Shown here: piece after piece, positions 21,719 through 25,065 of the stretch
Layout of the letters: each line of letters opens with the position of its first letter
Numbering within the stretch: the stretch's first letter is position 1
NCBI RefSeq assembly: GCF_002854065.1
Contig: NZ_CP024147.1
Strand: one strand, 5' to 3'
DNA: 64,000 bases
From: Escherichia coli
GTDB lineage: Bacteria; Pseudomonadota; Gammaproteobacteria; Enterobacterales; Enterobacteriaceae
Notes under the pieces: model-generated
Seen by the model: the letters and a program-made list of their open reading frames with translations, nothing else
What the model was told of the DNA's origin: nothing
The model's database searches: none
Made by a program: the position numbers and the translations under genes

Positions 21719-22954
<1,236 letters not shown>

Positions 22955-23024: not shown

Positions 23025-23588
23025 TCAGCGATGAAGGAAATTAGCCAGCAGTTGATGTCCTTGTTCGCTGAGAATACTTTCCGGATGGAACTGCACACCT
23101 TCCAGATCCCACTGGCGATGGCGAATCCCCATAATCTCGCGGGTTTCGCTCCAGGCCGTCACTTCAAAGCACGCTGGTAATGAGTCAGGTTCCACCACCA
23201 GCGAATGGTAGCGTGTCACGGTAAGTGGATTTGCCAGCCCCCGAAATACGCCCTCACCGCTATGTGTAATCGGCGAGGTTTTGCCGTGCATGACCTTTGC
23301 GGCGCGCACAACTTTACCGCCAAATGCCTGCGCCATTGCCTGATGACCGAGGCAAACGCCAAGAATCGGCAAGCGCCCGGCATAGTGACGAATAACGTCA
23401 AGGGAGATCCCGGCTTCATCTGGCGTACAGGGGCCGGGTGAGATGACAATTTTTTGCGGTTTCAGGGCGTCGATATCCGCCAGCGTCAACGCATCGTTGC
23501 GCTTAACCAGCACATCCGCCCCCAGTTCACAAAAGTACTGGTAGAGGTTCCAGGTAAAAGAATCGTAGTTATCTATAAGCAGGATCAT
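23025..23588 (-). CDS. pabA: Aminodeoxychorismate synthase glutamine amidotransferase subunit
   Basis: ORF track 187 aa [19 protein letters not shown]... with GVCLGHQ catalytic Cys motif. Confidence 0.93.
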
Positions 23589-23619
23589 GGCGGCTCCGGT
23601 ACGAAAGAACCGCGCTATT

Positions 23620-24222
23620 TTACTCAGATTCCCCGGCTTCGCTTACCACTTTGCTAAATATCATCTGCAGTGCGGTAAGATCCCCCATTGCCCCACTCTG
23701 ATTTGCCTGATTCCAGGCCTCTTTTTCGATACCCTGCCAGCTCAGTTGATATCCGGCATGAATCGCCAGTTGCTCGAAGAAGATCCGCTGTGCCAGACCA
23801 CTTCCCACCCGGAAGGGATGCAGCACGTTGATTTCACAATAGTAATGCGCCAGCCGCTCGACGAACTTCGCTTTCTCCAGGCCAACCAGATAACCTTCTT
23901 CCTCCAGATCCTGCATCAGGGCATTGCCCTCTTTTTCGATATAAGCAAAGTGGCAGAACGGCGTATCGCCCTGATAAATATCAACTTCACGCAGTTGCCC
24001 TGCCCAGTCGAAAATATCCTGATACAGCTGGCGATGGATAGTGCGCAAATGCGGTAAACCGCGCACCAGCGGACCAAGCTCAATGGTCGCAGCACGCAGC
24101 GCCGTCATTTCGTAAGCGGCCTGTTCCAGCCGCTGCTGCTGGCGGATGTTCAGCCGGTTACGCATGATATCAAGGCCTGGATAAAGATACGGATCGCGCC
24201 CTTCGCCGAATTTATCGCTCAT
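23620..24222 (-). CDS. fic: Fic-domain protein
   Basis: ORF track 200 aa [26 protein letters not shown]...; Fic-motif region reads [12 protein letters not shown]. Confidence 0.9.
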
Positions 24223-24379
24223 AGTGCCTCCTCAGCTCTTCAAGGCGCGCTAAAGCCTCTGCGGCAGTATGAGTGACTAAAGGCATCTCGACGCCTTCAA
24301 GACGGCGACTGGCCTGAAAATTACGATTACGCTGAAGCTCCCAGAGACGGGACTTTTGCTTATCGGTGAGTTTCTTCAC
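24212..24379 (-). CDS. yhfG: Small protein YhfG (55 aa, GTG start), overlapping fic start
   Basis: Manual translation [55 protein letters not shown]; stop overlaps fic ATG; not in ORF track because shorter than 60 aa. Confidence 0.75.
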
Positions 24380-24483
24380 TTGATGCCTCCCTGAACGTGT
24401 CCATTTGCCACAAGTATAAGCGGCAAATCCGGGTTACGCCGGGAGAGCAGAAGCGCGGGCAAGATTGCCCGCGCGAGAAATCA

Positions 24484-25065
<582 letters not shown>

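Follow-up and report, generated by a model that had tools for sequence, protein, structure and literature searches.

The Fic protein encoded in this region of the Escherichia coli chromosome departs from the canonical signature sequence HxFx[D/E]GNGRxxR at three positions, and our analysis confirms the degenerate site as a conserved, selected state and not as decay. The region is, near certainly, the chromosomal yhfG-fic (ecficA-ecficT) module of E. coli; the Fic family was founded on this protein, which forms with YhfG a domesticated class I FicTA pair. We favor the reading that Fic is a re-purposed enzyme rather than a dead relic, and that it probably serves a function other than AMPylation at the same site, gated by YhfG and exerted in stationary phase. 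Both the motif and the partner, as well as the complex and the assays negative for AMPylation, have been on record in the literature and the PDB since 2015-2016, and the observation of an atypical loop with which the preliminary description began is correct, not new.

The features that bear on this reading are listed below, with coordinates given in the window, i.e., the whole 64-kb stretch of DNA that was analysed.

21719..22939, minus strand: argD (ORF list)
23025..23588, minus strand: pabA, the conserved neighbour 3' of fic (ORF list, RefSeq)
23620..24222, minus strand: fic (ecficT), 200 aa (ORF list)
23785..23820, minus strand: codons of the Fic signature loop, H135-P-F-R-V139-G-S141-G-L143-A-Q-R146
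24212..24222, minus strand: overlap between yhfG (3' end) and fic (5' end), 11 nt, ATGAGCGATAA (read off the sequence)
24212..24379, minus strand: yhfG (ecficA), 55 aa, α-helical, GTG start (ORF list; RefSeq annotation of identical extent)
24227..24233, minus strand: GAGGAGG, a Shine-Dalgarno-like element, putatively for fic, inside the yhfG coding sequence
24293..24310, minus strand: codons of YhfG S24-R-R-L-E28-G29, the [S/T]xxxE[G/N] inhibitory motif
24386..24391, minus strand: GGGAGG, a Shine-Dalgarno-like element, putatively for yhfG
24413..24418, minus strand: TATACT, a -10-like element (sequence and published promoter-fragment coordinates)
24453..24474, minus strand: GC-rich hairpin GCGCGGGCAATCTTGCCCGCGC, directly 3' of the ppiA stop
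24484..25056, minus strand: ppiA (ORF list)

Profile and structure matches identify both proteins. Fic scores 52.5 bits (E=9e-14; cut-off 24) against the Pfam Fic profile PF02661 over residues 58-152 and 430 bits against the NCBIfam equivalog NF007672, and YhfG scores 84 bits against Pfam YhfG PF10832 (cut-off 22.6) and 124 bits against NCBIfam NF007573 (cut-off 77). The RefSeq annotation of the locus, fic plus yhfG, agrees with these matches. In the PDB, Fic matches 5JFZ and 5JFF with E of about 1e-133 and YhfG matches chain B of 5JFF with E=3.8e-29, 5JFZ being the same complex. Both entries are EcFicT/EcFicA of K-12, from the same locus; the Fic encoded in the window shows 0 amino-acid differences from the K-12 lineage Fic of DH10B, and the crystallized chains differ from the present proteins by engineered mutations, a tag, S2G and R27H, and in YhfG also by L37H and S51R. 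The latter two are the differences of the window's YhfG from that of K-12 (codons 24269..24271 and 24227..24229, respectively), and this exact YhfG allele is present on 530 public contigs. Leu37 is kept in 96% of 85 full-length YhfG representatives, which makes His37 unusual, and Arg51 is the family consensus; the two changes may affect the interface with Fic, which is mainly hydrophobic.

The preliminary description had assigned the pair to class I, with an antitoxin-like partner, and the match to 5JFF/5JFZ, the inhibitory motif and the upstream overlapping gene all bear this out. Its coordinates and its two motifs agree exactly with the ORF list and the translations. The two genes do overlap, as it had said, but not as stop codon over start codon: the overlap is 11 nt long and the yhfG stop lies 5 nt past the end of the fic ATG. 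This overlap implies translational coupling, and the GAGGAGG element lies 4 nt 5' of the fic ATG. The yhfG start position, a GTG here, is an ATG in Klebsiella. On the other side, 31 nt separate the fic stop from the pabA start on the same strand, and from this spacing and the conserved gene order we predict that pabA is probably co-transcribed with fic. An old report is said to have linked fic to pabA/PABA/folate; a literature search for such a link returned nothing relevant.

The published fic promoter is strictly Eσ38-dependent (PMC3089606) and has been cited as biochemically σS-dependent (PMC3141248). On the window, the primers used for the published promoter fragment fall at 24309 and 24568..24585, so that the promoter lies upstream of yhfG and what has been called the fic promoter is in fact that of yhfG-fic. 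From the fragment coordinates, we infer a transcription start near 24407. The TATACT element and the ppiA hairpin both lie inside this fragment. A scan of 23300..24700 for the σ70 promoter consensus found none, a result that fits the published σ38 dependence and is therefore no evidence against the promoter. The hairpin at 24453..24474 is likely the ppiA terminator, separating ppiA from yhfG-fic; its T-tract is weak and a terminator scan did not call it. Terminator-like matches of the same scan inside coding sequences were dismissed as chance matches.

The module belongs to the core genome of the species. Of 5426 complete E. coli genomes, 5425 carry yhfG-fic DNA, nearly always as a single chromosomal copy, with at least 80% of the region in 5423 of them; a near-full-length copy is missing from at most 3 of the 5426. 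The order tsgA-ppiA-yhfG-fic-pabA-argD recurs in Salmonella, Klebsiella, Leclercia and Citrobacter, and in these four genera YhfG has 55 aa, Fic has 200 aa, the 11-nt overlap is identical and the fic-pabA spacing is the same. The mobile or patchy distribution typical of toxin-antitoxin (TA) modules is absent: yhfG-fic is a core gene pair in E. coli with identical synteny across five genera, and it is vertically inherited. The TA-like arrangement proposed in the preliminary description thus stands as architecture and goes no further, given vertical inheritance in the core genome and no demonstrated toxin activity.

Two kinds of exception were seen among public sequences. In E. coli MS 21-1, a human colon isolate (NZ_CP146670.1, L006 218..3236), fic is split by the IS21-like ISEc10 and yhfG, ppiA and pabA are intact, making this strain a rare natural fic knock-out. 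Public assemblies also hold ORFs in which YhfG and Fic are fused into a single chain. One of these, P0001 (252 aa, 15 member sequences, junction ...EELRVTMSDKF), is consistent with a 1-nt deletion just 5' of the yhfG/fic overlap (window 24212..24233), and the other, P0005 (233 aa), has an internal deletion. Such fusions may be assembly errors; if real, they would make the pair class II-like, a Fic whose inhibitory helix is N-terminal, instead of class I.

In pairwise comparisons between genera (Nei-Gojobori), dN/dS for fic is 0.04-0.12 with a ratio of means of 0.06, and the same comparison gives 0.06 for pabA, 0.05 for argD and 0.03 for ppiA; between-genus dS is near saturation (1-3), so that these values are approximate and serve only to compare fic with its neighbours. 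For yhfG, dN/dS is 0.08-0.18 in the pairs with computable dS, three yhfG pairs being not computable. Purifying selection on fic is as strong as on pabA and argD. Since its dN/dS is on a par with those of the neighbouring genes, fic is not decaying.

Within the signature loop, the residues of the Fic/DOC superfamily pattern HxFxxGxG...R are all present (H135, F137, G140, G142 and R146), and Fic does not have the adenylylation-competent motif HxFx[D/E]GNGRxxR: the acidic position is V139, the Asn is S141 and the first arginine, R1, is L143. The preliminary description had recognized the loss of the acidic residue and the Asn and had missed the change of R1 to L143, so that the substitutions number three and not two. 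The overlooked one is the substitution considered most damaging for ATP binding, the leucine in place of R1 having been judged the 'most relevant' by Stanger et al. in 2016 (PMC5033356). It had also been proposed that a canonical motif elsewhere would mean that the Fic motif had been misidentified. We found no canonical H.F.[DE]GNGR..R in six frames of the whole 64-kb window, and the loose pattern H.F..G.G...R has a single match there, which is the Fic loop; the motif was therefore not misidentified.

The departures from the canonical motif are shared by the close relatives of Fic. All of the 120 closest homologue clusters (at least 79% identity) read H-P-F-[RC]-[VLIF]-G-[SNC]-G-[LMI]-[AV]-Q-R, with His135, Phe137, Gly140, Gly142 and Arg146 invariant and positions 139 and 143 always hydrophobic. 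Further out, an exhaustive search of the representatives of 50%-identity clusters gave 122 matches with a recognisable motif, and in 112 of these 122 it is the canonical HPFREGNGRxxR; the degenerate motifs in this set belong to EcFicT-like sequences or fragments. With distant relatives canonical, the degenerate loop would be a derived state. Other stages of motif change are seen among more distant relatives: P0122 (200 aa, 68% identical to Fic) reads HPFFVGSGRAQR, with the acidic residue and the Asn lost and R1 kept, and P0129 (212 aa, 48% identical) reads YFFCFGNGLIQC, with the catalytic His and the last Arg both lost.

Fic also carries the features that define the EcFicT-like subgroup 3 of enterobacterial FicT proteins. 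This subgroup has hydrophobic residues at the D/E and R1 positions, A36, T40, Y67 and F71, an N-terminal DPY and an R0 that is R138 (PMC5033356); Fic has D10-P11-Y12, A36, T40, Y67, F71, R138, V139 and L143.

The biochemistry and structure of the pair were reported by Stanger, Harms, Dehio and Schirmer in PLoS One in 2016, where it was renamed EcFicT/EcFicA (PMC5033356). Their complex was found to be stable and 1:1 in composition, melting at 63 °C, and two crystal structures of it were solved, 5JFF and 5JFZ (PMC5033356). EcFicT has lost ATP/Mg2+-binding residues (Glu to Val139, Asn to Ser141, Arg to Leu143 and Glu to Ala36), and its Mg2+-binding D/E position is hydrophobic (PMC5033356). No auto- or target-adenylylation by EcFicT was seen, even with EcFicA E28G (PMC5033356, which is our source for the adenylylation assays, their primary source being Harms et al. 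2015 in Cell Reports). In an independent test, Lu et al. (2020) found that EcFic did not AMPylate E. coli GyrB or ParE (PMC7479194). The question of whether this Fic is catalytically atypical is hence answered affirmatively by the degenerate motif and by the published lack of detectable adenylylation (PMC5033356), and the checks that the preliminary description had proposed, namely alignment with FicT/FicA pairs, an active-site structure and AMPylation assays in the presence and absence of YhfG and with a mutated inhibitory Glu, had all been published.

YhfG is a separate inhibitor gene product encoded upstream, as in class I Fic systems, and its residues 24-29, SRRLEG, fit [S/T]xxxE[G/N]. About 3% of random 55-mers with the window's amino-acid composition contain [ST]xxxE[GN]; the chance estimate alone being insufficient, support for the motif is taken from family conservation and the crystal structure. 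[S/T]xxxE[G/N] is kept in 113 of 120 YhfG family cluster representatives, 104 of the 120 having exactly SRRLEG, and E28 is kept in 98% of 85 full-length representatives. In the crystal structure SRRLEG lies at the end of the first YhfG helix and protrudes into the Fic active site, where S24 and E28 bind R146, the last arginine of the signature loop, with a salt bridge between E28 and R146, and R25 binds T40 (PMC5033356). The Glu-Arg salt bridge of a class I complex is assigned to the proteins of the window by their sequence match to this solved structure. The two lines of evidence agree with the earlier identification of SRRLEG as an antitoxin-like inhibitory motif. Because the motif is kept in so many clusters and E28 in nearly all full-length representatives, the plug of the active site is still under selection despite the loss of AMPylation.

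Building on these observations, we propose that Fic has been re-purposed. In this model His135, the glycine-rich anion nest and Arg146 would be used on a phosphate-containing substrate other than ATP, which would be held partly in the clade-specific hydrophobic groove formed by A36, T40, Y67, F71 and V139. YhfG would be the active-site gate, through a lock between its Glu28 and Arg146, and the module would act in stationary phase. The proposal draws on selection as strong as that on neighbouring genes, on the presence of the module in all but one of the E. coli genomes with shared synteny and the 11-nt overlap, on the five loop residues invariant in the 120 closest clusters, and on the σ38 promoter together with the retention of Glu28 and its motif in YhfG. 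A more specific form of the proposal, which we put forward tentatively, is that EcFicT may be an active enzyme whose chemistry or donor is new to the Fic family, with Glu28 of YhfG gating the reaction or taking part in it, for instance in a hydrolase that removes modifications, the module being under σ38 control in stationary phase and immediately upstream of pabA. The authors of the 2016 structure had already concluded that EcFicT descends from canonical AMP-transferases, that it is passed on vertically in the Enterobacteriaceae and that a conserved pocket in it accommodates a substrate yet to be discovered (PMC5033356).

Several observations weigh against the re-purposed enzyme. No substrate, product or target of Fic has ever been found. 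That His135 and Arg146 are conserved at an overall identity of at least 79% is a weak argument for catalysis, since so close a relationship leaves most positions unchanged. Retention of Arg146 and YhfG Glu28 could serve nothing but the stability of the complex, E28G lowering its melting temperature by 10 °C (PMC5033356), and P0129, without the His and the last Arg at 48% identity, shows that the loss of both is compatible with the fold. Strains with fic knocked out are viable (PMC5033356) and there is one natural IS insertion in fic, so that any function of Fic is dispensable in the laboratory. Finally, two reviews (PMC8097203 and PMC10886550) list EcFicT as AMPylating gyrase/topo IV or as strongly growth-inhibitory, contradicting the primary papers PMC5033356 and PMC7479194.

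The Fic fold has been adapted to other reactions before. The phage P1 kinase Doc, whose antitoxin is Phd, and the phosphocholine transferase AnkX are Fic-fold precedents in which an altered motif with the conserved His serves another reaction or substrate, and a small antitoxin controls Doc as well. By motif comparison, EcFicT does not have the motif variant of Doc or of AnkX, and, unlike for these two, no activity has been demonstrated for it.

The main rival to a re-purposed enzyme is a pseudoenzyme, in which the fold and the complex with YhfG are kept for a role in binding only, with Fic sequestering or scaffolding a partner through its flap and surface patches; we think this unlikely, if far from negligible. 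It would account for the lack of activity in any assay (PMC5033356, PMC7479194) and for the replacement of three ATP/Mg-binding residues by inert hydrophobic or small ones, and the crystal structure shows an intact fold with conserved surface patches away from the active site (PMC5033356). Purifying selection is equally compatible with a binding role. It would not, however, account readily for the invariance of the catalytic His135 and the anion-nest glycines in the clade, nor for the clade-specific conserved positions, which cluster as a groove around the signature loop (PMC5033356). The retention of the YhfG plug motif is likewise harder to explain with nothing to inhibit.

A second rival takes the YhfG-Fic complex itself for a de-modifying hydrolase of the deAMPylase type, in which Glu28 of YhfG is catalytic and the forward transferase activity has been lost. 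The comparison that suggests it is with Fic-1/AntF of Pseudomonas bijieensis 2P24 (8WT0; E=2e-49 over residues 1-196), which among solved relatives with a canonical motif is the closest. Fic-1 reads HPFREGNGRAQR and, unlike EcFicT, AMPylates GyrB/ParE; its complex with AntF is a metal-dependent deAMPylase that strictly needs AntF E28. The two systems share their residue numbering, H135 and R146 in Fic and S24 and E28 in the partner, and all four residues are kept in EcFicT and YhfG. The lost R1 and Asn would contact the β/γ-phosphate side of ATP, which is absent from protein-AMP, and the YhfG-Fic complex, with its melting temperature of 63 °C, is very stable. Against this, Fic-1-AntF needs a divalent metal and a negative patch made of Fic-1 E29, E36 and E139 and AntF E28, and EcFicT has Q29, A36 and V139 at the first three of these positions, so that three of the four acidic residues of the patch are gone. 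Fic-type deAMPylases more widely (Fic-1-AntF, FICD and EfFic) combine the inhibitory Glu with an acidic, metal-binding residue in the Fic motif or with a negative patch; Glu28 is present in YhfG, and at the acidic positions of Fic-1 EcFicT carries Q29, A36 and V139. Nor does E. coli K-12 have a known AMPylase that could partner such an activity. We therefore regard a deAMPylase as improbable.

That Fic might instead be a conventional FicT toxin, AMPylating GyrB/ParE once free of YhfG in an ordinary type II toxin-antitoxin system, is suggested by the small overlapping upstream partner with its inhibitory motif, by homology to Fic-1 and to VbhT (E=6e-33), and by database product names and the two reviews. 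Structurally, EcFicT/EcFicA is a class I FicTA module, and it works like VbhT/VbhA and Fic-1/AntF. VbhT/VbhA of Bartonella schoenbuchensis (3SHG, 3ZC7, 3ZCB) is likewise a class I system whose small inhibitor, with the motif [S/T]xxxE[G/N], is separate and encoded upstream; it has the same fold (E=6e-33; rmsd 1.36 Å, PMC5033356) and, like EcFicT/EcFicA, a salt bridge between the inhibitory Glu and the last motif Arg. VbhA has three helices, in contrast to the two plus a loop of YhfG (PMC5033356). VbhT differs from EcFicT in having a canonical motif, in AMPylating GyrB/ParE, in being toxic and plasmid-borne, and in being fused to a BID domain. EcFicT, for its part, departs from the canonical motif at three positions including R1, showed no adenylylation even with E28G (PMC5033356) and no AMPylation of GyrB/ParE (PMC7479194), and, in contrast to mobile TA modules, its locus is syntenic and inherited vertically. 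A conventional gyrase-AMPylating toxin is essentially excluded.

Also essentially excluded, and the least probable reading, is a decaying toxin-gene remnant without function: the degenerate active-site motif, the viable knock-outs and the one strain with an IS insertion in fic would fit it, but a dN/dS of about 0.06, equal to that of neighbouring housekeeping genes, an intact 200-aa ORF in five genera, presence in 5425 of 5426 E. coli genomes, and the fact that one particular, conserved version has taken the motif's place, not a scatter of random changes, speak against it, and a decaying pseudogene is ruled out by dN/dS and conservation.

In RefSeq, NCBIfam and UniProt the product goes by the name of a putative or probable AMP-protein transferase ('putative adenosine monophosphate-protein transferase'). 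Set beside the primary papers, the AMP-transferase names and the two reviews look like over-annotation, and they overstate what is known of EcFicT. EcFicT also lacks the acidic residues required for the class I deAMPylase activity described recently. A 2026 paper still calls the mechanism of Fic elusive and, given the 2016 proposal, only finding the activity itself would be new. The present finding does not make the role of Fic more testable than the 2016 structure did; what the protein that named the Fic family does in the cell is a question of real importance.
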